Below, in pieces: positions 6,617-38,605 of a stretch of DNA of 41,351 nt. This DNA comes from a virus. Its lineage: Duplodnaviria > Heunggongvirae > Uroviricota > Caudoviricetes. The first letter of the stretch is position 1, and each line of letters opens with the position of its first letter. A program made the translations under genes and the position numbers. A model generated the notes under the pieces. It saw only the letters and a program-made list of their open reading frames with translations. It did not search any database and had not been told where the DNA came from. The DNA lies in IMG/VR virus record IMGVR_UViG_2541047933_000011, one strand, 5' to 3'.

Positions 6617-6633
6617 ATTACCTTTCGGGTAAT
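6617..6633. promoter_or_regulatory. operator-like palindrome ATTACC-tttcg-GGTAAT (perfect)
   Basis: exact 6-5-6 inverted repeat; 37 bp upstream of LexA box and 76 bp upstream of ATG 6709. Confidence 0.6.
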
Positions 6634-6989: not shown

Positions 6990-7716
6990 ATCGTTTCGCT
7001 TTGTGCTCGTCCCAGCACGTTTTGCACCATGCCATTAAGCCGTCCGCATTTTGATTATTAGGGTAAAAGCTAGTTCGTTTTCTGCGGACATTACAAATTG
7101 GGCACCACTTCATATGGCGTGTATTCTTTGGGCCATCGAGACACCTTGCACACCACTTAGTCAATCCATCTGGATTTTTTGACGATTTCCTGAATTTTTC
7201 ATATGGAAGGTTTATTCTGCATCGCAAGCACTGCTTGCTACCACTTGAAACTCTGTTAGCTGATTCTTCTTTTGGCGGCGATACAGAAGGTATTCTTGCT
7301 GGCTCTGATACTGCCTGAGGTGCTTTTTTAGATGACTGAGACGATATGTCATCACCAGGGAATCTTCCATGATATGCCGGACGCGTTGACACTCCGGGTG
7401 GAAGCTCAGCTGTAAACGGCTTTGGCTGAATCAGTTGCCTCTCTTTTGCTAACTCCTGCTGTTTATAATATGTCTGGATTACCGCGCTATCATAAGCAGG
7501 AGGTACGGAAATATTAGGCGCATTATCTCCCGTTTTTTGAAACTGAGTGGAGGTGTGTTCTATCACCTGTGTACGATTAATCGTTATCTCCCCATCTTCA
7601 GTCTTTATCGTTTTGTTATGATTAACGACCGTACGATCAGAGATCTTAGTCTTGTTCTGGTTGATAACGTAAATAATCACCGCAACCACACCAACAACTA
7701 CCCAGAAAACTTCCAT
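6988..7716 (-). CDS. membrane-anchored protein with C-terminal tandem zinc-ribbon (four CxxC pairs)
   Basis: 242 aa; strong GAGGAAAGG RBS; N-terminal TM helix; C-terminus CLRC...WCARC...WCPIC...WCKTC. Confidence 0.6.
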   Translation of the reverse strand: MEVFWVVVGVVAVIIYVINQNKTKISDRTVVNHNKTIKTEDGEITINRTQVIEHTSTQFQKTGDNAPNISVPPAYDSAVIQTYYKQQELAKERQLIQPKPFTAELPPGVSTRPAYHGRFPGDDISSQSSKKAPQAVSEPARIPSVSPPKEESANRVSSGSKQCLRCRINLPYEKFRKSSKNPDGLTKWCARCLDGPKNTRHMKWCPICNVRRKRTSFYPNNQNADGLMAWCKTCWDEHKAKR

Positions 7717-9699: not shown

Positions 9700-9704
9700 A
9701 AACA

Positions 9705-9727
9705 AGGCCGCGAAAGCGGCCTGTTTG
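9705..9727. terminator. stem-loop between convergent genes
   Basis: AGGCCGC-gaaa-GCGGCCT hairpin. Confidence 0.45.
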
Positions 9728-9728
9728 A

Positions 9729-10580
9729 TCACTGTGCAGTTTTCGCTGATCGATTTTCAGCTCTAAATTCAAGAACCGTTTCAATATTTCTTTCCTTCAG
9801 CATATCAATAACATTTTTATTCATTTGACTATCACTGGTTAATAACTGGTAAACGTTGCTTCTCTCTTTATCAGAATTTTCTTTAACAGCTGCTTTGCAT
9901 GCCAAATGCTTATTGAAATTTTCTACATCGCTAGTACAGGAATTTACGGCTGCTGATGAAATATCAGACGCTGAAGAAACACCATCATCCAAACGTTTTA
10001 TAGCATTTTCTATACATGAGTTAAGGGAATAAACGACAACTGAGCGATACCCTTCAGACGCACACCATTCTAAATTTCTTGAAGGATCGAGTGGTTTTAC
10101 TTCGCTGGATTGAATTAACTTGTCAAAAACTGACTTATATTCAATCTGTTTTTTATCTATAGCCCATACTTCAGTAGCTGATTTATAATTCCCCGTATGC
10201 CTATTAACATCAAATCCATGTTTTATAAGCAAATCTGCCCATGAAAGATTTATTGATTCATTGTTATGAGGCCATTTTCCTGTCAGAACCGCCCCCATAG
10301 ACCCCATATATCCGCCATATGATGGTATAGCACCATGGCTCAGTAACTTCTCAGCAACCACAGGGCAATTAATTACATAAGAGGCGTAAAGCCCATTCCA
10401 TAAAGCCCCTCTATAGTAATCGCCACGATTAGGTTCTTTTAAGTCGATAGCCTTTGATAATTGTTCACACGTTTTGCATGCATCAAAGTTATCCTTATTG
10501 CATTGCAATGAACTGGCGGCTGTAGGATTTACAGAGACTATTGAAAGCACTATGCCAAAAAACAAATTTATTTTTTTCAT
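9729..10580 (-). CDS. secreted protein with ankyrin-like repeats
   Basis: 283 aa; signal peptide MKKINLFFGIVLSIVSVNPTAASS; ankyrin-like segments (AEKLLSHGA; ADLLIKHGFDVNRHTG); AT-rich; starts 1 nt after stop of upstream virion gene. Confidence 0.55.
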   Translation of the reverse strand: MKKINLFFGIVLSIVSVNPTAASSLQCNKDNFDACKTCEQLSKAIDLKEPNRGDYYRGALWNGLYASYVINCPVVAEKLLSHGAIPSYGGYMGSMGAVLTGKWPHNNESINLSWADLLIKHGFDVNRHTGNYKSATEVWAIDKKQIEYKSVFDKLIQSSEVKPLDPSRNLEWCASEGYRSVVVYSLNSCIENAIKRLDDGVSSASDISSAAVNSCTSDVENFNKHLACKAAVKENSDKERSNVYQLLTSDSQMNKNVIDMLKERNIETVLEFRAENRSAKTAQ

Positions 10581-17748: not shown

Positions 17749-20219
17749 CAGAATCCCCCAACAGTAAGGCGAGGAATAACGGCAAGAACAGACAGCGGCA
17801 ACGGGTCAAGCTGACGGATTTTTACACGTCCGTTTTTGCCCCAGTTACTGTCCAGTTTCACTTCTACTTTTCCGGTAGCATCATCAACAGGATCATCGTA
17901 GAACTCGAATTCACGCTGTGGATATTCGTACCATTTACCGCCGGGCGTAGTCGCCCAGATGCCGCGACTGGCATTCACAACCAGAGTAACGGAGGGGATC
18001 ACCTGTTTTTTGTCCAGCAGCGTTTCCTGTCCGTTAATGTTGATATCCAGTGTTTCGAATTCAGCAGTTATTGGCAGGCCGATGTGCACTACAGCCCCCG
18101 GAGATTCCAGCGTGACGGCACCTCCGGAAACCACTTTCTGTGGTTCCACGTTCGCATCAGAGAGAATGTTTACGGTCTGGCCTTCAAGATGAGACAGGCC
18201 TCCAAATGTCCGGCGCGCCATCTGCCAGTTCGTGGTAGCCACATTCCTGAGGGATGGCGGGACGTTCCTGTTAGCACGAACCACTACAGCGGTATTGCTG
18301 GTTACAGAAATGATGTCGCAACGTAATTCTTTTGACACTTCATCGCCAGTATCAGGATCAGTTCCGGTATAAGGGAACTGTAGTTGAGCACCGATATCAC
18401 TACTGGTGAAGTACGCACCACCAGAAACACTGATTGTATATTCCGCGCGGTAATCCCATTCGCCAGAACCACCAGTGATGGTCATCGTTCTGTCAGACGT
18501 ATTTCTTCCATCATAGCTAAGGCCAGAATCAACAAAGAAAGCATCTTCATCGCTGGTAAATAAACGGCTGGACAGCCGCTCGATGTATCTCACTGTTTGC
18601 CCGTTAACGGTTCGGTTAACGACGAAATACACCGCATCTTCATTGCCTTCGCTGATACTGCATGTGCTTTCATATTTTCCGGTACTGGATTGTGGTGCCC
18701 ATGCAAAAACCTGCTGATCACGCAAATAGGTCATCACCAGTAATTTACCGTCATCACGAATGCAGAAGGCACTGGAGTAAGGGACAATCGAGAAGCACCA
18801 GTCAACAATGCTGTGCTTCTGAAAAAGATGATTGGCAAGGATGGTCAGGTCGTTCCCCTGATAGCCGTCAACATCGAATGAGTAGGCCAGATCACGGACA
18901 ACGCTGCCTTTCTCCTGGACGAACAGAGCAATATTCGCCACGGCAATTGGCGGGACGTTGCTTGAGCCATTTGATCCCTGAGAGCTGAATGCAAATGATG
19001 ATGGGGTTAACACTTTGTTCTGGTCGCCGGTGATGACGTACTCACCTCCGGAAGTCAGCGCCACCAGCGAACCGACATCAATCAGGTGGCGGATCTCATT
19101 AACCTGACGCCCGGCATAGGTGTAGATAATTCTGTCGTCATCCTGCGTAGGATTGCTTTTGCCAAAATCCTTATAATCCCCGGTACGGCTGGCCCAGATA
19201 GTCTGAGGGAACGCAGTCGATGCGGCGAAGTAAAGACGTTGTTGATAATAAACAACAGTGCCAGGATAACCATTAACACTGTTCCAGGCATATTTAGCCC
19301 ATTTATAGCTGGCATTATCCTCGCCAACGACCTGCGAAGGGATATAGGAAATCACCTCAGCAGTTGCAGTAGTGCCATTTGCAGCAGTGATACGGGCAAT
19401 GCCAAAACCACTGTGCAGATACTCCCACTCAATGCCAGTATCATCATCACCGGATCCGCCCCAGCCATCCCATGATGTGCCTTCTGTATGCGAAGGGCGC
19501 AAAGTACCTGTTTTGCCTGCTGTAACGGCGCGATAGTAGTTACTGTCTGCACGGCGAATATCGCCAATCGACGTACTCTTACTGGTTTCCCATACCGGCA
19601 CAGAATCCACTGCAGGCTGTTCCAGATAGAACAATTTGCCTACCTGCTCCGCGCCAAAAATAGAGGCGCTTGCCGTTAACGTAATTGTCCCGGTGCTGGC
19701 GCTGGCATAAACCGTCACTGACTCGTCAATATTGATATCTTCAAATGGCCCGTTCTTCGTTACCACATCAACCAGTTGCCAGTTGTCATGCGCATAGCGG
19801 CGCAACTCTTTCGGCGGGTATGCCGGATGAACCAGCGTAAGCACGTCTGCGCTTTGCGTGAATTTAATTCGGAACAGATCGGCTTCAGTATATGGCGTGG
19901 AAATTTCATAAATAACATTGCTGCTGTTCAGCACCAACGCACCATCTTTGATAACGCGCATGTACTGGTGTCCGAACTCCAGAGCATAAGTCTGAACCGT
20001 CGAGAACTGGAACGGGATCAGGCGGCATTTCCGATTTGGGTATTTGGCGGCACCGACAAAACGCGTACCAGGTCGATTCTCAACTCCGCCATACTGCCGC
20101 ACGATAAAGTTATCGCACTTGCGCAATGCCACCTGGTACTTCGCCATGTCAATACGACCGTACAACGACGGTCCAATCTCACCACCGGCAAAGCTGGGCT
20201 GGATCCAACTGATAGCCAT
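17748..20219 (-). CDS. tail hub / tail tubular protein B-like
   Basis: 823 aa; N-terminus MAISWIQPSFAGGEIGPSLYGR resembles T7 gp12 N-terminus (recalled). Confidence 0.65.
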   Translation of the reverse strand: MAISWIQPSFAGGEIGPSLYGRIDMAKYQVALRKCDNFIVRQYGGVENRPGTRFVGAAKYPNRKCRLIPFQFSTVQTYALEFGHQYMRVIKDGALVLNSSNVIYEISTPYTEADLFRIKFTQSADVLTLVHPAYPPKELRRYAHDNWQLVDVVTKNGPFEDINIDESVTVYASASTGTITLTASASIFGAEQVGKLFYLEQPAVDSVPVWETSKSTSIGDIRRADSNYYRAVTAGKTGTLRPSHTEGTSWDGWGGSGDDDTGIEWEYLHSGFGIARITAANGTTATAEVISYIPSQVVGEDNASYKWAKYAWNSVNGYPGTVVYYQQRLYFAASTAFPQTIWASRTGDYKDFGKSNPTQDDDRIIYTYAGRQVNEIRHLIDVGSLVALTSGGEYVITGDQNKVLTPSSFAFSSQGSNGSSNVPPIAVANIALFVQEKGSVVRDLAYSFDVDGYQGNDLTILANHLFQKHSIVDWCFSIVPYSSAFCIRDDGKLLVMTYLRDQQVFAWAPQSSTGKYESTCSISEGNEDAVYFVVNRTVNGQTVRYIERLSSRLFTSDEDAFFVDSGLSYDGRNTSDRTMTITGGSGEWDYRAEYTISVSGGAYFTSSDIGAQLQFPYTGTDPDTGDEVSKELRCDIISVTSNTAVVVRANRNVPPSLRNVATTNWQMARRTFGGLSHLEGQTVNILSDANVEPQKVVSGGAVTLESPGAVVHIGLPITAEFETLDININGQETLLDKKQVIPSVTLVVNASRGIWATTPGGKWYEYPQREFEFYDDPVDDATGKVEVKLDSNWGKNGRVKIRQLDPLPLSVLAVIPRLTVGGF

Positions 20220-26014: not shown

Positions 26015-26031
26015 ATTACCTTTCAGGTAAC
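26015..26031. promoter_or_regulatory. operator-like palindrome ATTACC-tttca-GGTAAc
   Basis: core exact; 90 bp upstream of ATG 25925. Confidence 0.55.
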
Positions 26032-26352
26032 CAAAGGGCTCATTCTGGTTACTAACCTGACTGGCTTGTCGTTAAATTAAACAGGTGGAGTGAGCTTTTA
26101 TTTTGAGCAGTACGGCGTATGGCACATGCGCCGATAGCGGTCTGGATACGTTTAAGGGGCACCCTCCCTTGCTCGGGCAAACGAACCAGGTAGCCGGAAT
26201 GTGCAAGTCGAGCGGTTTTATTCCGCGCACGGGGATTCACCATCCCGGCGATTCGGTGTGACGCCTCGGAAGAGACGAGGGTACAACGATGAGAGCATTT
26301 ATGGAGCCGCGACAAAGTGTGGCGCCTTAACAGGCTAAGTGCTCTCAGCGTT

Positions 26353-26429
26353 GTGGCATTAGCTCAGTTGGACAGAGCAACCGCCTTCTAAGCGGTTGGT
26401 CGCAGGTTCGAATCCTGCATGCCACGCCA
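26353..26429 (+). tRNA. tRNA-Arg (anticodon UCU), phage-encoded
   Basis: 77 nt; acceptor stem GTGGCAT/ATGCCAC; D-arm GCTCAGTTGGACAGAGC; anticodon stem ACCGC/GCGGT with loop CTTCTAA; T-arm GCAGGTTCGAATCCTGC; 3' GCCA. Confidence 0.85.
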
Positions 26430-26472
26430 GAATCACGCCTAAGGACCGTGATGCCAGAAGTTCCAGGTGCTT

Positions 26473-26516
26473 GGCGGTGATAGTTTCCCTTGAAGGACTA
26501 TCACCGCCCTTTTTAC
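26473..26516 (+). terminator. rho-independent terminator after tRNA
   Basis: 12-bp stem GGCGGTGATAGT/ACTATCACCGCC followed by CTTTTT. Confidence 0.65.
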
Positions 26517-26627
26517 AGCAGGACGCCATTGCGATGACTTCATGCTGTAAACCCGTACAGCCACGGAAGGCATAACTCATTGCTTCCAGTTCGCCCGGTT
26601 CGCCGGGCATTTTTTTAAGGTGAGATT

Positions 26628-27002
26628 ATGAACGACCAGCAAATCGAAAAAGAAATCGTTGAGAAAGGCAAAACCGCTCCGCGTGTAACACCCGAGAAAA
26701 TTGAAGGCCTCATTTGCAGTGAGCATTTTTTCACTGCTGCGCAGGGTGACCACCAGGCTAAAGAAGATGACCTTATTTATAATCCGGAGCCTTATGTCGA
26801 AGCCACCCCTGATGCTCTGCACCTTCTCACTTTCTGCGTATTGGTACTGAAGAATGGCTTCACCGTTACCGGAGAGAGTGCCTGTGCAAGCCCGGAAAAC
26901 TTTGATGCAGAAATTGGTCGGAAGATTGCCCGGCAGAATGCTGTAAACAAAATCTGGATGCTCGAAGGTTACTTGCTGAAGCAGAAGTTAAGCGAGCAAT
27001 AA
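26628..27002 (+). CDS. Gp49-like (N4 gp49 / Sf6 gp66 family) protein
   Basis: 124 aa; AAGGTGA RBS; motif LTFCVLVLKNGFTVTGESAC recalled as typical of this family. Confidence 0.55.
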   Translation: MNDQQIEKEIVEKGKTAPRVTPEKIEGLICSEHFFTAAQGDHQAKEDDLIYNPEPYVEATPDALHLLTFCVLVLKNGFTVTGESACASPENFDAEIGRKIARQNAVNKIWMLEGYLLKQKLSEQ

Positions 27003-27019
27003 CACCGTGACATGTCACA
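26999..27019. repeat. direct repeat copy 1: ATAACACC-GTGACATGTCACA (12-bp perfect palindrome)
   Basis: shares 21 of 21 non-indel positions with 29447..29470; at the terL-distal boundary of the terminase block. Confidence 0.7.
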
Positions 27020-27022
27020 AAC

Positions 27023-27050
27023 AGCCAGCCGATGAGCTGGCTTTGTTTTA
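27023..27050 (+). terminator. terminator-like hairpin after gp49-like gene
   Basis: AGCCAGC-cgatga-GCTGGCT followed by TTGTTTTA. Confidence 0.5.
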
Positions 27051-27092
27051 TCCTCACCAGAGGATATCAGCAGTATTATCCCCACCAGCGGA

Positions 27093-28568
27093 TTAAGCAT
27101 AAGGGTCATAATCCGTTATGGCCCTTCCCTGCTGGCTTTGCTGTCCAGGTATATTTATGCGTTTCGAGACCGGGAAAGCAAACGTCAGCAGTAGCGCATC
27201 GCCTTTACCAGGAGAACGCCCAAGTCGCTCTTTGATATCTTCCTTCGGTTCGATAACGATTTTACCGTCCACTCGAACTTTGTACTCTGCCGCCGACAGG
27301 TCGTCTGCTGTTTCCTGGTCATCCAGCATGCCGCCCAGCCTCAGCCATGTCTTGCATGAATTGAACATCTCCCCACGCTTGTTGAGCATCTGCGGGTCAG
27401 TAGACGCGCCACCGAACGGAACAAGTTGCCATGTACGACCCCAGCCGTCACCGATTGACTTCAAACCGGTTCCGTAACCGAAGTCGATGAACACCGCGTC
27501 AGCCTGATACTGGTCTTCAAAGTCAGCGATACGCTTCGCCATAATCAGATCGTCGGTAGTCTTGTTGCCAGTCCACAGCACCTTACTGTGTAGCCCCTGC
27601 CGCAGGTATATCACAGCGTCATCAACGCCGGAGTATGCCGGGTCAACGCCGATTATCACCGGAGCATGTGCAACCTGCGCAGCGGTTACCACCCGTTTCA
27701 TTGCCTCGTCAGTAAGACCGGTAGGGATAAACTGCAATTCAGATGCATCAGGGAATATGCCACGCACACGGATTTTAACGAAGTCGCTGTCTTCCCCGTA
27801 GTCATCAACCCATTTCTGCAACTGCTGTTTGTTAGTGCCTTCCACCGTCCGGCTGTCAATCTGCGCAGTTTTCCAGCGGTGTTTATATTTGCGGAAACAT
27901 TCGCGAAAACGCCCGGTGTTACGTGTAGGGTTTCCGAACGCCACCCAGATAATCTCAGTGTCTTCGTCCGTAAGCGCACCCTCGGCAACTTCCCACACCA
28001 GATCCGCAATGTTCGACGCTTCATCAAACACCACGATGATGCGTTTGCGCTCGTTGTGTAGTCCGGCGAATGCCTCGGTGTTGTGCTCAGACCAGGGTAT
28101 TGCGTCAGCCCGCCACCGCTTGTCGTGCCCTAGGTCATTGCTGTACATCGCGGTAGCGGTACAGGTAAACCAGTCTTTCGTGATAGCAAGGTTCGACCAC
28201 TTGATAATTTCCGGCCAGGTCTTCGTTCGTAGCTGGTTGTCGGTGTTGGCGGTCACCACGACCTTACAATCCTCGCAAGTGGACATGCCCCAGTTGATCA
28301 GCATTGAGATGAATGCGGATTTACCAATACCGTGACCAGAAGCGCGTGCCAGCATAAGCGGCTGATAGCGCGTCTCTGGATTCTGCAGGTGATCACGTAT
28401 CTCTCGGAACGCATCAGCCTGCCACTGACGTGGGCCGGTGGCATGTGCCAGTTCAGTCCCCTCTTCCCCCCATGGGAACGCATAGAGGGCATAGCCAAGC
28501 GGATCGTGAGTGAACCCTGCAATATCCTCGATTAACTGCTCTTCAGGAGATAACGCTGTATCTGTCAC
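27093..28568 (-). CDS. terminase large subunit
   Basis: 491 aa; Walker A ARASGHGIGKS; GTG start overlapping terS stop (GTGA). Confidence 0.85.
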   Translation of the reverse strand: MTDTALSPEEQLIEDIAGFTHDPLGYALYAFPWGEEGTELAHATGPRQWQADAFREIRDHLQNPETRYQPLMLARASGHGIGKSAFISMLINWGMSTCEDCKVVVTANTDNQLRTKTWPEIIKWSNLAITKDWFTCTATAMYSNDLGHDKRWRADAIPWSEHNTEAFAGLHNERKRIIVVFDEASNIADLVWEVAEGALTDEDTEIIWVAFGNPTRNTGRFRECFRKYKHRWKTAQIDSRTVEGTNKQQLQKWVDDYGEDSDFVKIRVRGIFPDASELQFIPTGLTDEAMKRVVTAAQVAHAPVIIGVDPAYSGVDDAVIYLRQGLHSKVLWTGNKTTDDLIMAKRIADFEDQYQADAVFIDFGYGTGLKSIGDGWGRTWQLVPFGGASTDPQMLNKRGEMFNSCKTWLRLGGMLDDQETADDLSAAEYKVRVDGKIVIEPKEDIKERLGRSPGKGDALLLTFAFPVSKRINIPGQQSQQGRAITDYDPYA

Positions 28569-29161
28569 TGATTGCCATCCTGACGTTCTTTCAGTCTCTT
28601 CCTGGCTGCCGCTATGCGATCAGCAATTGTCACATTCACATTAACATCCAGGCGTTCTTTGAATGCGTTGACGTCGACGTGCTTACCAATCAGTTCGAGG
28701 TTCTTCACCTTGTCAGGCCATTTAATTTTTTTGAGGATTGTCTCTATCGAATCCTCGTTCATGTTCATGATGGTCGATGACAGATCAAAGCCACTAAGCG
28801 TAGTGCGCCAGATTTTCGGCCACTCGCGGATTGGCTTAAGGCTCCCATCGTCGTTGAGGATGTCGATCACGTCCATCTGGTCGATCTCCACCAGGCGCAT
28901 GAGAACGTAATCAGCACTGACGCGCATTCGTTTGTTGCGCTCTTCCATCAGCTCGGCAATCCGTTTTTGAATGCGTTCATCGCGCATCATGAGACTGGCT
29001 TTAACTGCCGCTGTATTTGGGGAGAATCCTGCGTTAATCGCAGCCTGAGTCTGGTTTTCAGGCGTTTGGATGTATGACTGGCAATAAGCCTCCTGCATTG
29101 CTGTTAGTGGCTTAAATTGCGTTGATTTGCGTTTATAGGTTTTAGGTTCAGCAGGCATCAT
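28565..29161 (-). CDS. terminase small subunit
   Basis: about 199 aa from ATG 29161; HTH-like NQTQAAINAGFS; directly upstream of terL. Confidence 0.65.
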   Translation of the reverse strand: MMPAEPKTYKRKSTQFKPLTAMQEAYCQSYIQTPENQTQAAINAGFSPNTAAVKASLMMRDERIQKRIAELMEERNKRMRVSADYVLMRLVEIDQMDVIDILNDDGSLKPIREWPKIWRTTLSGFDLSSTIMNMNEDSIETILKKIKWPDKVKNLELIGKHVDVNAFKERLDVNVNVTIADRIAAARKRLKERQDGNQ

Positions 29162-29177
29162 AACCACCGTGGTAATA

Positions 29178-29194
29178 GTTACCGTTGTGGTAAT
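29178..29194. promoter_or_regulatory. operator-like palindrome gTTACC-gttgt-GGTAAt inside an 11-bp direct repeat (GTGGTAATAGT x2)
   Basis: core exact; 17 bp upstream of terS ATG. Confidence 0.55.
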
Positions 29195-29235
29195 AGTACC
29201 ATGCAAAATAAAGCCGCCATAGTTGGCGGCAGTAT

Positions 29236-29448
29236 TCAAAGTCCATCAAATTCATCGTAAAAACTCTCGTCAAGATACCCTTCCCATTTACCGCGAATGA
29301 AAATTACATCCTCGCCGCAAGGGTGCTGACTGTCGATAACTATATCCCTCCTGGCGCAACCATACTTATGCATGAGAAATTTAACCTCTTTCGGAAAATT
29401 TGCTGAGTTATCTCTCATATCTTCAAGGTCGTAGCGTATTTTTGGCAT
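29236..29448 (-). CDS. small protein upstream of terS
   Basis: 70 aa from ATG 29448 with AAGGTG RBS. Confidence 0.5.
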   Translation of the reverse strand: MPKIRYDLEDMRDNSANFPKEVKFLMHKYGCARRDIVIDSQHPCGEDVIFIRGKWEGYLDESFYDEFDGL

Positions 29449-29470
29449 AACACCTTCGTGACATGTCACA
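29447..29470. repeat. direct repeat copy 2: ATAACACC-ttc-GTGACATGTCACA
   Basis: matches 26999..27019 apart from a 3-nt insertion; overlaps start of 29236..29448 and stop of 29466..29804. Confidence 0.7.
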
Positions 29471-29804
29471 CTATTAATTTCGTTTCATGCCAGCCTTTAG
29501 TCACCCAGCATTGCGAGTCACCATTACACGGGCATGAATTAACGGGAACTCTCTCGCCGCACTTACCGCAAAGTTTTCTGCTGATCGATTTTATACGCCC
29601 GCGCACACGTGCATCATCCTGGCGGATCAGCAGCGCGATGTACTCGGCCATTTCATAGGGATCGTGACCAGGGCGCCGGGCGGCGCAGTTCCGCGCCAGC
29701 ATTTCCTGCTCCTGCTTATCCAGCACCAGTTCAATTTTGCGCTCACCGGCGGCGGACTGCCGAGCGCGCTGCGCGGCTTTGCGCTCTGCTGCTGATTTAG
29801 CCAT
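29466..29804 (-). CDS. protein with C-terminal Cys cluster (zinc-binding; possible late regulator by position)
   Basis: 112 aa from ATG 29804 with AAGGTG RBS; C-terminus CGKCGERVPVNSCPCNGDSQC. Confidence 0.5.
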   Translation of the reverse strand: MAKSAAERKAAQRARQSAAGERKIELVLDKQEQEMLARNCAARRPGHDPYEMAEYIALLIRQDDARVRGRIKSISRKLCGKCGERVPVNSCPCNGDSQCWVTKGWHETKLIV

Positions 29805-37533: not shown

Positions 37534-38556
37534 ATGTCTATCAATGCACTTAAGGCAGCGGCTACCGGTAACCAAGTTGCACATCATAATGAGAAACCAA
37601 CAACTCTGGCCGGACTTCTGGCAGACCCAAAAATTAAAGCTCAGATGGCTTTGGCACTTCCAAAGCACATGACAGCAGACCGTCTGGCGCGCATAGCAAC
37701 CACAGAGATCCGAAAGGTTCCAAAACTTGCATCATGCGACCAAGCCAGCTTCCTGGGGGCAATTATGCAATGTGCCCAATTGGGTCTTGAACCAGGCGGA
37801 GCTCTTGGACACGCTTACCTGATACCGTTCGACAAACGCCAGAAAGTAAATGGAAGATGGGAAACCGTATCTACAGAAGCACAGCTGATTATCGGCTATC
37901 GCGGAATGATTGACCTTGCCCGCCGCTCTGGGCAGATCCTGAGTATCTCGGCTCGTACCGTACATACAAACGACAAATTCAGCTACTCATACGGCCTGGA
38001 AGAAACGCTCGAGCATTTACCTTGCGAAACAGGTGACCGCGGAGAATTAACGCACGTTTACGCCGTTGCACGACTGAAAGATGGCGGAGTCCAATTTGAA
38101 GTTATGAGCCGGGCAGACATTGAGAAAGTTCGTGCACTGAGCAAAGCCGGTAGCAGTGGCCCATGGGTTGATCACTTCGATGAGATGGCTAAAAAAACAG
38201 TAATTCGCCGACTATTCAAATATCTTCCTGTTTCTATTGAAATGCAGAAGGCTGTTGTTATGGATGAGCGCGCTGAAGCTGGACTTAGCCAAGATAACGC
38301 AGCTGTTATCACTGGTGAATATTCCGTAGTTGACGATGAGCGTCAACACCTGTCGCCAATTTCAGATTCAGAACGAGAAGAAGCTCGAGAATATATCATC
38401 GCGATACTTAATAGCCTGGATCCATCTGCTGAAGATGCAAAAACGATGTTCAAGCGCGCTGAAAATGAGATTAACACCATGGCTGAAAAGCTCGGTGATG
38501 AATATCACCAAAAATTCATGATGACGCTTAACGATATGCGTCCAGAATTCGAGTAA
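37534..38556 (+). CDS. recT: RecT single-strand annealing recombinase
   Basis: 340 aa; AAGGAG RBS; long stretches close to E. coli Rac RecT (IATTEIRKVP; LIIGYRGMIDLARRSGQI; THVYAVARLKDGG; GPWV; MAKKT.IRRLFKYLPVSIE). Confidence 0.9.
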   Translation: MSINALKAAATGNQVAHHNEKPTTLAGLLADPKIKAQMALALPKHMTADRLARIATTEIRKVPKLASCDQASFLGAIMQCAQLGLEPGGALGHAYLIPFDKRQKVNGRWETVSTEAQLIIGYRGMIDLARRSGQILSISARTVHTNDKFSYSYGLEETLEHLPCETGDRGELTHVYAVARLKDGGVQFEVMSRADIEKVRALSKAGSSGPWVDHFDEMAKKTVIRRLFKYLPVSIEMQKAVVMDERAEAGLSQDNAAVITGEYSVVDDERQHLSPISDSEREEAREYIIAILNSLDPSAEDAKTMFKRAENEINTMAEKLGDEYHQKFMMTLNDMRPEFE

Positions 38557-38605
38557 CCACCACCGCGGTGCCACACGCGCCGCACTGCAACCAAGAGAGG
38601 TATTT

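Follow-up and report, generated by a model that had tools for sequence, protein, structure and literature searches.

A short palindrome accompanies a small Cys-cluster protein gene in temperate phages and may be an operator-type site at operon boundaries

Results

The terminase region of an epsilon15-like phage

The window, meaning the whole 41,351-nucleotide stretch that was analysed, is a podophage of the epsilon15/phiV10 type (Uetakevirus), and its late genes lie on the minus strand. The features relevant to our analysis are listed below; sites without a strand are unstranded.

26015..26031: repressor-operator-like site that precedes the gp3-like and portal genes and marks where the next late unit starts
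26353..26429, plus strand: tRNA-Arg(TCT), within the plus-strand insert that holds the moron gene, between terL and the gp3-like gene
26628..27002, plus strand: moron gene, Gp49/Sf6-gene-66 family (PF13876, E 2e-34), convergent with terL
27007..27018: palindrome copy 1, 4 nt past the moron gene TAA and 4 nt ahead of the terminator stem
27023..27042, plus strand: intrinsic terminator, AGCCAGCcgatgaGCTGGCT followed by TTGTTTT, separating the convergent terL and moron gene
27093..28568, minus strand: terL
28565..29161, minus strand: terS (Terminase_2), with its likely start at ATGATG (29161/29158) and not at TTG (29239)
29160..29194: two repressor-operator-like sites of the ATTACC-N5-GGTAAT type, just upstream of terS
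29213..29230, minus strand: intrinsic terminator, GCCGCCaactatGGCGGC followed by a T run, closing the early-right transcription unit
29236..29448, minus strand: 70-aa ORF (phrog_1541), an accessory gene lying between copy 2 and the terminator
29458..29469: palindrome copy 2, holding the stop codon TGA (29466-29468, minus strand) of the gene for the 112-aa protein
29466..29804, minus strand: gene for a 112-aa protein, homologue of epsilon15 gp49 and N15 gp46 (phrog_536), the candidate palindrome binder

Several of these features have counterparts in epsilon15, whose annotation includes a stem-loop homologous to the terminator at 29213-29230. The operator-like sites at 29160-29194 correspond to epsilon15 positions 12-27, annotated as repressor-binding, and the site at 26015..26031 corresponds to 2931-2947. 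In epsilon15-like phages the 112-aa-family gene is the last of the early-right operon and directly precedes the terminator and the late genes.

A palindrome occurs twice around the terminase genes

Exact copies of the 12-bp palindrome GTGAC-AT-GTCAC (GTGACATGTCAC) lie at two places in the window, 27007-27018 and 29458-29469, where 0.01 copies are expected, and none of 100 dinucleotide-preserving shuffles reached two. With two mismatches allowed the count in the window is not significant, so the signal sits in the exact copies. Both copies share the 14-mer CGTGACATGTCACA (27006-27019 and 29457-29470), and the longer match reads ATAACACC-GTGACATGTCACA at 26999-27019 and ATAACACC-ttc-GTGACATGTCACA at 29447-29470.

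The first-pass annotation had described this match as a direct repeat bracketing the 70-aa ORF, terS and terL. The repeat is real, non-random and functional-looking, and the intervening gene content is as described. A common orientation can be read from the flanks only; the core is its own reverse complement, so the distinction between direct and inverted is empty for it. A CRP site had been excluded on spacing, and we reject it on the same ground: TGTGA-CATG-TCACA has an N4 gap, whereas CRP requires N6. The suggestion that copy 2 sits at the start of the late operon does not fit the gene order. Copy 2 is found where the last conserved early-right gene has its stop codon, and the 70-aa ORF, the terminator at 29213-29230 and the operator-like sites at 29160-29194 all precede terS. 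Copy 1 lies past the terL terminator, on its downstream side for late transcription.

Both copies coincide with mosaic junctions

The additional 8-mer ATAACACC shared by the copies is a real match, with an estimated chance probability of roughly 1e-4 when a few offsets are allowed. Its meaning differs at each copy. At copy 1 the TAA stop of the moron gene falls within it. At copy 2 it is antisense to the ATG and ribosome-binding site with which the 70-aa ORF begins (GAAGGTGTTATG), and these are the source of the ATAACACCttc flank. The 8-mer is missing at copy 2 in relatives without the 70-aa ORF (phiV10, typing phage 9, PAS61 and epsilon15). The ORF itself has been reduced to an 8-codon remnant in phiV10, PAS61 and typing phage 9, and the difference between presence and absence begins immediately past copy 2. 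Copy 1 is abutted by at least five different, unrelated convergent cargo genes, or by none; these genes end at the same TAA, 4 nt away.

Such a pattern could mean that the palindrome serves mainly for recombination or module exchange, either as a conserved boundary sequence or as a target of site-specific insertion. Cassettes like the 70-aa ORF and the moron genes behind terL would be exchanged there, and the gp49-family gene would be another cassette. Every site lies at a mosaic junction. In addition to the full or remnant 70-aa ORF directly past copy 2 and the convergent genes ending at one TAA, 15 of 78 relatives carry other inserts at copy 1 and one relative (L190), which lacks the moron gene, keeps only a half-site at that place. 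A third site, known from epsilon15 and phiV10, has been replaced in the window with its neighbouring terminator intact, and the common 8-nt flank suggests an old duplication or exchange of a site plus its flank. Against this, the gene-site unit and its neighbours show no recombinase or nuclease domain, 12-14 bp is short for homologous exchange, and sites also occur without a cassette boundary inside conserved coding sequence (cII-like genes, repA and the start of Q). Conserved islands at gene ends become crossover points regardless of function, and a binding-site model predicts junctions as well. We thus consider a primary role in recombination improbable, and attribute the coincidence with mosaic junctions to the site being such an island. 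The module-exchange junction proposed earlier survives insofar as both copies lie at mosaic junctions (the 70-aa ORF on one side, at least five cargo genes on the other); what does not survive is its tie to the terminase.

The palindrome follows the 112-aa-family gene across phages

GTGAC-N2-GTCAC was counted in eight complete genomes, which represent six phage lineages and each encode a member of the 112-aa protein family. Together these genomes, six of which were picked because they encode the protein, contain 18 exact sites, compared with about 0.2 expected under a first-order Markov model. The sites are distributed as follows: two in the window, two in phiV10 (plus one with a single mismatch), one each in Chlobot and Yersinia YenM_31.17, and three each in epsilon15, ZF40, Vibrio K308 and N15. 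As a further control, the same half-sites with spacers of 0, 1 and 3-7 yielded two sites in total in the eight genomes. No spacer-2 site was found in lambda or P22, the two control genomes, both of which lack a family member. The motif is therefore enriched where the protein is encoded, has a copy at the gene itself and is absent from the controls, which form a small set.

A second sample consisted of 80 loci (IMG/VR contigs, 1.33 Mb) chosen by the protein alone and made up of close relatives with at least 80% identity. These loci contain 140 spacer-2 sites and three sites for all other spacers combined, and in 77 of the 80 the palindrome is exact at the stop codon of the 112-aa-family gene. 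Copy 1 is less constant: it is found behind terL in 62 of 78 IMG/VR relatives (56 exact, six with one mismatch), and the 15 that lack it have terminase proteins that are 97-99% identical. Its position is conserved in phiV10, PAS61, PH444 and epsilon15, and with two mismatches in a Klebsiella phage. The first-pass annotation had made its reading depend on retention of the repeat in close relatives with the same terminase genes; this held largely for copy 2 and in part for copy 1. Individual sites are dispensable, since these 15 relatives lack copy 1 and the window lacks the third site. Many IMG/VR matches to the 14-mer stand alone or result from coding coincidence, as with VTCH in a CxxC motif, and were left out as evidence.

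Beyond the epsilon15-like phages, the palindrome follows the gp49/gp46-family gene into lambdoid, P2-like, N15-like, HK97-like and myovirus genomes with unrelated terminases. The stop-codon arrangement seen at copy 2 recurs in N15, a Yersinia P2-like phage, an HK97-like contig and lambdoid prophages. In ZF40 and the class of loci represented by L016 the stop codon lies upstream of the site and the site is still kept, so its conservation is not due to coding. Across genera the site stays the same although the DNA around it varies. Other sites lie just upstream of xis-int, on the start codon of Q, inside cII-like genes or 30 nt upstream of terS (Vibrio phage K308). The third copy of epsilon15 and phiV10 is 17 kb distant, where the structural operon ends. 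Throughout, the half-sites are invariant while the central dinucleotide varies (AT, GC, AC, TG/CA, CC) among proteins of 34-45% identity, as is characteristic of a dimer reading two 5-bp half-sites.

These distributions also bear on packaging. The sites flanking the terminase genes, one at either end, could constitute a pac recognition element of the epsilon15-type terminase: copy 2 lies 100-300 bp upstream of terS, a frequent pac location, one K308 site precedes terS by 30 nt, and the epsilon15 and phiV10 records open next to the site. However, the records start right after the preceding stop codon and look conventional, not like mapped ends. The motif also occurs with the gp49/gp46 gene in phages with cos or unrelated terminases (N15, a P2-like phage, the lambda-like Chlobot and the HK97-like contig), the third copy is far from the terminase, and copy 1 is dispensable among nearly identical terminases. 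We thus rejected pac and cos sites as candidates, and a packaging role is highly improbable. The same observations remove the earlier view of the repeat as an element of the terminase block.

Spacing separates the phage sites from matS

Another possibility is that a host protein such as MatP binds the sites, through which the phage would attach to or interfere with host chromosome organisation. The hosts of motif phages that were examined (Escherichia, Salmonella, Klebsiella, Yersinia, Pectobacterium and Vibrio) all fall in the MatP-bearing group. MatP reportedly occurs in the host groups other than Vibrio, and a host factor common to Enterobacterales and Vibrio may be the binder. V. cholerae has MatP (PMC11564523). 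The phage half-sites are identical to those of the 13-bp matS consensus, GTGAC-RNY-GTCAC (PMC6907758, PMC3603311). The parallels extend further, as MatP/matS, the organiser of the Ter macrodomain in E. coli and Vibrio, also uses few dispersed palindromic copies per replicon, has an overlapping host range and involves a ribbon-helix-helix (RHH) domain, which in the phage protein is predicted.

Several features nevertheless set the phage sites apart. Their spacer is always 2 bp and never 3 bp in the 18 genomic and 140 locus sites, giving strictly 12-bp elements, and the loss of one base pair turns the half-sites relative to each other by about 36 degrees; identity with matS was rejected because neither window copy nor any of the 18 sites has the 3-bp spacer. 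Prophages reportedly avoid true matS (0 in 500; PMC3603311). Lambda and P22 share hosts with the motif phages yet lack such sites, and the motif tracks a phage gene and occupies its stop codon. MatP has a four-helix bundle and a coiled coil where the phage protein has a Cys cluster, and the phage protein shows no sequence relationship to the MatP family, PF06303/PF17414 (BLASTP E 12 and hhalign probability 0.2%). Binding of the sites by MatP or a similar host protein therefore seems unlikely.

The palindrome is a poor candidate for an RNA element

The sites lie in transcribed 3' regions right beside intrinsic terminators, and some abut ribosome-binding sites or start codons. This raises the possibility that they act in transcript 3' ends as a hairpin, GUGA-CNNG-UCAC, either as a nut/boxB-like recruiter of an arginine-rich N-terminus or as a signal for processing or stability. 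A palindrome forms an identical hairpin from either strand, which would be in keeping with the convergent position of copy 1, and the 112-aa protein has an Arg/Lys/Gln-rich N-terminal helix. The predicted stem is weak, however, with 4 base pairs and -2.7 kcal/mol (z -1.5; 20 of 200 shuffles were as good), and is not the preferred fold in the copy 2 transcript. There is no covariation; an invariant stem around a centre that varies at 34-45% protein identity is the pattern of DNA half-sites. Among Rfam families only the tRNA matched in the window, and the predicted fold of the protein is a DNA-binding one (RHH). A nut/boxB-type hairpin was accordingly rejected, and we give RNA-level function in general a low probability.

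The 112-aa protein is the candidate binder

The 112-aa protein has a basic N-terminal helix, a predicted RHH fold and a C-terminal Cys cluster. The most conserved residues of its family are Arg8 and Arg13 in the basic helix and Cys79, Cys82 and Cys99. The single protein had no match among Pfam, NCBIfam and PDB sequences. The family profile matched TraR and YbiI weakly (E 0.04-0.08, residues 49-110), no family member matches the DksA/TraR Pfam model, and of the C4 pattern of DksA/TraR (CxxC-X17-CxxC) only CxxC and one later Cys are invariant in the family. At 50% identity the family falls into 146 clusters; its prophage copies number in the hundreds, and its members are labelled at present as 'hypothetical' or, without evidence, as 'transcriptional regulator'. 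A second homologue search with the Yersinia protein as query added only nine sequences.

The first-pass annotation had suggested a binding test with this Cys-cluster protein, encoded upstream. It is indeed the best candidate, and judging from the co-occurrence of motif and gene the palindrome is most likely its binding site. Structural neighbours of the predicted fold include the RHH proteins omega (1irq), Arc (1arq) and Mnt (1mnt), each of which offers a partial parallel. Omega, the repressor of the inc18 plasmid pSM19035, is likewise a small RHH protein that serves several dispersed sites. Its heptads follow the 7-bp consensus (A/T)ATCAC(A/T), and TGTGACA-TGTCACA, divided into two heptads, looks like a pair of the omega type in inverted orientation, with TCAC in common. 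Unlike the single inverted pairs at operon 3' ends described here, omega sites consist of 7-10 heptads arrayed within promoters; omega also lacks a zinc-type C-terminal domain and has no detectable sequence homology to the phage protein. P22 Arc and Mnt are phage-encoded and bind short palindromic operators. Those operators overlap the promoters that they repress, upstream of the corresponding genes (P22 annotation), whereas the palindrome overlaps the stop codon of its putative binder and lies beside terminators.

Parallels with phage late-gene activators are looser. In epsilon15-like phages the family gene holds the position of lambda Q, as the last early-right gene. Like P2 Ogr-type zinc-finger activators, the 112-aa protein is small with a Cys cluster, and the palindrome is of the TGT...ACA type. 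The Ogr site is TGT-N12-ACA. The phage site differs from it in spacing and from both systems in not lying in a promoter; there is no homology to Q or Ogr, and the family gene also occurs in phages with their own Q (ZF40, N15 and Chlobot).

Discussion

Our analyses lead us to propose, with a probability of roughly 0.55, that the palindromes are operator-type sites for the gp49/gp46-family protein, located at transcription-unit boundaries beside terminators. The operator would be best read as the 14-bp TGTGACA-TGTCACA, bound by the small, dimeric protein. In temperate phages of Enterobacterales and Vibrio, gene and site travel as one unit, with one to three sites per genome. In epsilon15-like phages the sites mark transcription-unit boundaries, each by an intrinsic terminator: copy 2 lies where the early-right operon ends, copy 1 at the convergent junction that follows terL and, in epsilon15 and phiV10, a further site where the structural operon ends. 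A search of the literature found neither the 14-mer nor a binding experiment, nor anything on such an element for epsilon15/phiV10, SPC32H or matS-like phage sites. The ZX5 publication covers repressor, anti-repressor and integrase only.

What the sites do is a matter of conjecture, and they do not lie near recognisable promoters. Binding presumably controls how much transcription crosses the boundaries. We favour a roadblock or insulator that would limit how far transcription of the early operon runs on into the 70-aa ORF and terS-terL or, in the case of lambdoid phages, into xis-int or Q; alternatively, the protein could act in anti-termination at the same terminators. Sites at xis-int, the Q start, cII-like genes and Vibrio terS are compatible with blocking entry to key genes. 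Copy 1, being downstream of the terL terminator, fits neither a simple roadblock nor simple late anti-termination.

A bolder version of the operator model, which we regard as speculative and rather unlikely, is an undescribed phage system that acts at operon boundaries instead of promoters. The predicted RHH domain would hold the site and a putative TraR/DksA-like zinc domain may engage RNA polymerase, deciding between stopping and reading on into terminase, structural or tailspike genes. The sites would then be deliberate matS look-alikes, one base short so as to avoid MatP.

The likeness to matS, with one base less, offers a simple test of how a host chromosome-organising site and a phage site are told apart by their spacing. 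The motif also provides a cheap annotation marker of transcription-unit and mosaic boundaries in these phages. Some epsilon15/phiV10-type phages serve in O157 typing. If the operator model is true, it would add a regulatory layer to phages of this type, in which late-gene control is poorly understood. If the pairing of protein and palindrome is right, a family that is common in the temperate phages and prophages of Enterobacterales and Vibrio would gain both a function and a cognate site.

A palindrome is the constant part of the repeat

The window represents an epsilon15/phiV10-like podophage of the genus Uetakevirus with its late genes on the minus strand, and the region shares 95-96% identity with several E. 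coli phages and about 80% with Klebsiella, Salmonella and Enterobacter relatives. The first-pass annotation described a direct repeat bracketing the terminase block, and both stretches lie where it placed them: ATAACACC-GTGACATGTCACA at 26999-27019 (copy 1) and ATAACACC-ttc-GTGACATGTCACA at 29447-29470 (copy 2). The block common to both copies, as delimited by a repeat finder, is the 14-mer CGTGACATGTCACA. The exact 12-mer GTGACATGTCAC, of the form GTGAC-N2-GTCAC, occurs twice against 0.01 expected, and none of 100 dinucleotide-preserving shuffles yielded two.

Features around the two copies in the window
29804-29466, minus: 112-aa gene, homologue of epsilon15 gp49 and N15 gp46 (gp49/gp46 family), TGA stop inside copy 2
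29448-29236, minus: 70-aa ORF (phrog_1541)
29230-29213, minus: intrinsic terminator after the 70-aa ORF
29194-29160: two repressor-operator-like sites between this terminator and the terS start
29161-28565, minus: terS
28568-27093, minus: terL
27042-27023: terminator behind terL
27018-27007: copy 1 palindrome, after the terL terminator in the late-gene direction
26628-27002, plus: Gp49/Sf6-gene-66-family gene, with the "TAA" of ATAACACC at copy 1 as its stop codon
26353-26429, plus: tRNA-Arg(TCT)
26031-26015: further operator-like site, followed by the gp3-like and portal genes

Since the palindrome core is its own reverse complement, the orientation of the repeat comes from its flanks alone. 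Beside copy 2, ATAACACC reads on the opposite strand as the 70-aa ORF's ribosome-binding site followed by its start codon (GAAGGTGTTATG), and in phiV10, typing phage 9, PAS61 and epsilon15 this flank differs while the palindrome is kept. Beside copy 1, the flank TAACACC is conserved in E. coli and Klebsiella relatives despite different convergent genes. A changing flank around a constant palindrome thus identifies the 12-14 bp palindrome as the functional repeat; the extra 8 bases may date from an old event in which the site was duplicated or exchanged together with its flank.

Because the 70-aa ORF precedes the terminator and operators, it closes the early-right transcription unit rather than opening the late genes. 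The suggestion that copy 2 marks the start of the late operon thus falls, as the ORF, terminator and operators all separate it from terS. The terS ORF as called mechanically (28565-29239) opens at a TTG and runs across the terminator and operators; translation almost certainly begins instead at the ATGATG at 29161/29158, as it does in epsilon15.

Twelve inverted repeats of the ATTACC-N5-GGTAAT type (0-1 mismatch; window positions 6617, 7736, 7829, 8876, 26015, 29160, 29178, 32980, 33042, 35366, 36077 and 36139) match epsilon15 sites annotated as repressor-binding. Besides those in the immunity region, there are copies ahead of terS, the gp3-like gene and the tailspike region, so that each late unit seems to be under direct repressor control.

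Conservation of the sites in close relatives

phiV10, PAS61, PH444 and epsilon15 have the palindrome at both positions, and a Klebsiella phage has copy 2 exact and copy 1 with two changes. Among 80 IMG/VR loci sampled solely by similarity to the 112-aa protein, 77 carry an exact copy of the palindrome at the gene's stop codon; of the other three, one breaks off at the end of the gene, one gave a truncated protein match and one (L176) carries the motif at another place in the locus. Behind terL, 56 of 78 loci have an exact site, six a site with one mismatch and one a half-site; the remaining 15 have unrelated AT-rich inserts instead, with nearly identical terminase proteins. The search of relatives thus bears out the repeat for the most part at copy 2 and only in part at copy 1.

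A third copy, at 19517 in epsilon15 and 19493 in phiV10, closes the long structural operon immediately ahead of the terminator; in epsilon15 the operon's last gene has its stop codon within this copy. This copy is not present in the window, where the homologous place (9700-9735) has another upstream gene and a terminator, GGCCGCtttcGCGGCC, identical to that of phiV10.

The DNA around the sites is variable. From terL to the gp3-like gene, window 26050-27006 is an insertion hot spot, within which the tRNA gene has its own terminators (26473-26508 and 26593-26608). Among relatives, at least five different convergent genes end at one TAA beside copy 1. After copy 2, the 70-aa ORF varies as an indel polymorphism: epsilon15 has none, and phiV10, typing phage 9 and PAS61 retain an 8-codon remnant made of the ATG and the final seven codons (MHDEFDGF*), a sign of deletion rather than insertion. 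Every site stands at a mosaic boundary, as a recombination or module junction would, yet this is expected of any conserved island at gene ends. With no associated recombinase, and with some sites inside conserved genes, we regard a junction as improbable.

The motif travels with the small gene

When viral contigs were scanned with the 14-mer, homologues of the 112-aa gene (45-88% identity) proved to have the site at their 3' end. They belong to lambdoid prophages, in which excisionase-like and integrase genes, not terS, follow.

Sites in other lineages encoding a family member
ZF40, Pectobacterium myovirus: three exact copies, just after the gene, in a cII-like gene and in gp08
Chlobot, lambda-like: one site, after the gene
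YenM_31.17, Yersinia P2-like: GTGACGCGTCAC across the stop codon
K308, Vibrio siphovirus: three sites, central dinucleotide GC or AC; one lies 30 nt before terS
N15, linear plasmid prophage: three sites, central dinucleotide TG/CA; one spans the gp46 stop codon
L218 (viral contig), HK97-like: GTGACACGTCAC across the stop codon

Eight complete genomes encoding a family member (the window, phiV10, epsilon15, ZF40, Chlobot, YenM_31.17, K308 and N15; L218, a 14.6-kb contig stretch, is outside the count) hold 18 exact GTGAC-N2-GTCAC sites, where about 0.2 would be expected. Spacers of 0, 1 and 3-7 between these half-sites account for two sites in the same genomes. By sequence comparison, the motif follows the small gene and not the terminase; the repeat is real, but the earlier terminase-centred reading was only partly right. 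This distribution also rules out a pac site.

Half-sites are invariant while the centre varies, and in ZF40 and the class of viral loci represented by L016 the site persists with the stop codon upstream of it, which together indicate conservation at the DNA level. That the element acts as an RNA hairpin is unlikely: its stem would have only 4 base pairs (-2.7 kcal/mol) and shows no covariation, and no Rfam family matches.

The half-sites are identical to those of matS, GTGAC-RNY-GTCAC (PMC6907758, PMC3603311), raising the prospect that host MatP binds them. However, the phage spacer is always one base shorter, true matS is reportedly avoided by prophages (PMC3603311), and the same-host phages lambda and P22 have neither a gp49/gp46-family gene nor the motif; we give binding by MatP little credence. 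The 112-aa protein has no sequence homology to MatP. K308 carries one canonical 13-bp matS (GTGACACCGTCAC, at 19491) alongside its three 12-bp sites.

Several further placements were observed. In a phage-82-type Q gene (MRDMSQVLERW...), codons 2-5 overlap the palindrome, which also lies in the 3' part of cII-like genes, where it encodes (C/R)DMS(Q/H), and in three contigs supplies with its central ATG the apparent start codon of a gene (cases in L015, L077 and L118, lambdoid viral contigs; ZF40 at 7622; and viral loci L033, L040, L059, L037, L065 and L079). The old "ice" element of lambda cII (38543-38557) is itself built as a 5-2-5 inverted repeat (GTCGT-TG-ACGAC) and precedes by about 10 bp the place at which cII-like genes of other phages have GTGAC-AT-GTCAC, which may be coincidence. 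High-GC viral contigs (L027, L046, L056, L075 and L113) hold the palindrome within dense, irregularly spaced, iteron-like arrays of CGTGAC/GTCACG half-sites, apparently unrelated to the enterobacterial phages. In several lineages (ZF40, L114, L096, L123 and L077), the family gene adjoins DNA methyltransferase genes.

A candidate DNA-binding protein and its proposed operators

The 112-aa protein belongs to phrog_536, labelled "transcriptional regulator", and has no match in Pfam, NCBIfam or PDB sequence searches. Clustering at 50% identity divides this small family into 146 clusters, almost all with lengths of 105-130 residues. Conserved across it are a basic helix at the N-terminus (Arg8, Arg13), a core of strand-helix-helix form and a Cys cluster in which a CxxC and one later Cys are invariant. 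An AlphaFold2 model (pLDDT 76.6) contains the helices that a ribbon-helix-helix monomer would have. The family profile weakly matches the DksA-type zinc fingers TraR and YbiI (E 0.04-0.08), a lead only. The literature searched contained neither the palindrome sequence nor a functional study of the family, and the palindrome is missing from the annotation of the epsilon15, phiV10 and N15 records, which does cover repressor, IHF, RNase III and integrase sites as well as terminators.

We consider it somewhat better than an even bet (roughly 55%) that the palindromes are operators for the gp49/gp46-family protein. The palindrome is strongly non-random, strictly spaced and kept across genera in otherwise variable DNA; it co-occurs with one protein family, whose fold is predicted to be ribbon-helix-helix-like. 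The protein would bind as a dimer or pair of dimers; on one reading, the 14 bp consist of an inverted heptad pair, TGTGACA and TGTCACA.

In epsilon15-type phages, every site lies at the end of a transcription unit beside an intrinsic terminator, and the following late units each have their own repressor-operator-like site. Other lineages have sites at the entry to key genes: before xis-int, at the Q gene start, inside cII-like genes and before terS. We favor a mechanism in which the bound protein would act as a roadblock or insulator limiting transcription from one unit into the next; alternatively, it might mediate anti-termination at the same terminators. Two observations fit the mechanism poorly: late transcripts would reach copy 1 only after passing the terL terminator, and single sites are dispensable in some relatives.

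Judged from sequence, the system would be of a recognizable kind, a candidate phage DNA-binding protein with dispersed palindromic sites. It is unusual in that the gene for the putative binder has its stop codon overlapped by one of the sites, that sites adjoin terminators and that the half-sites match matS with a shorter spacer.
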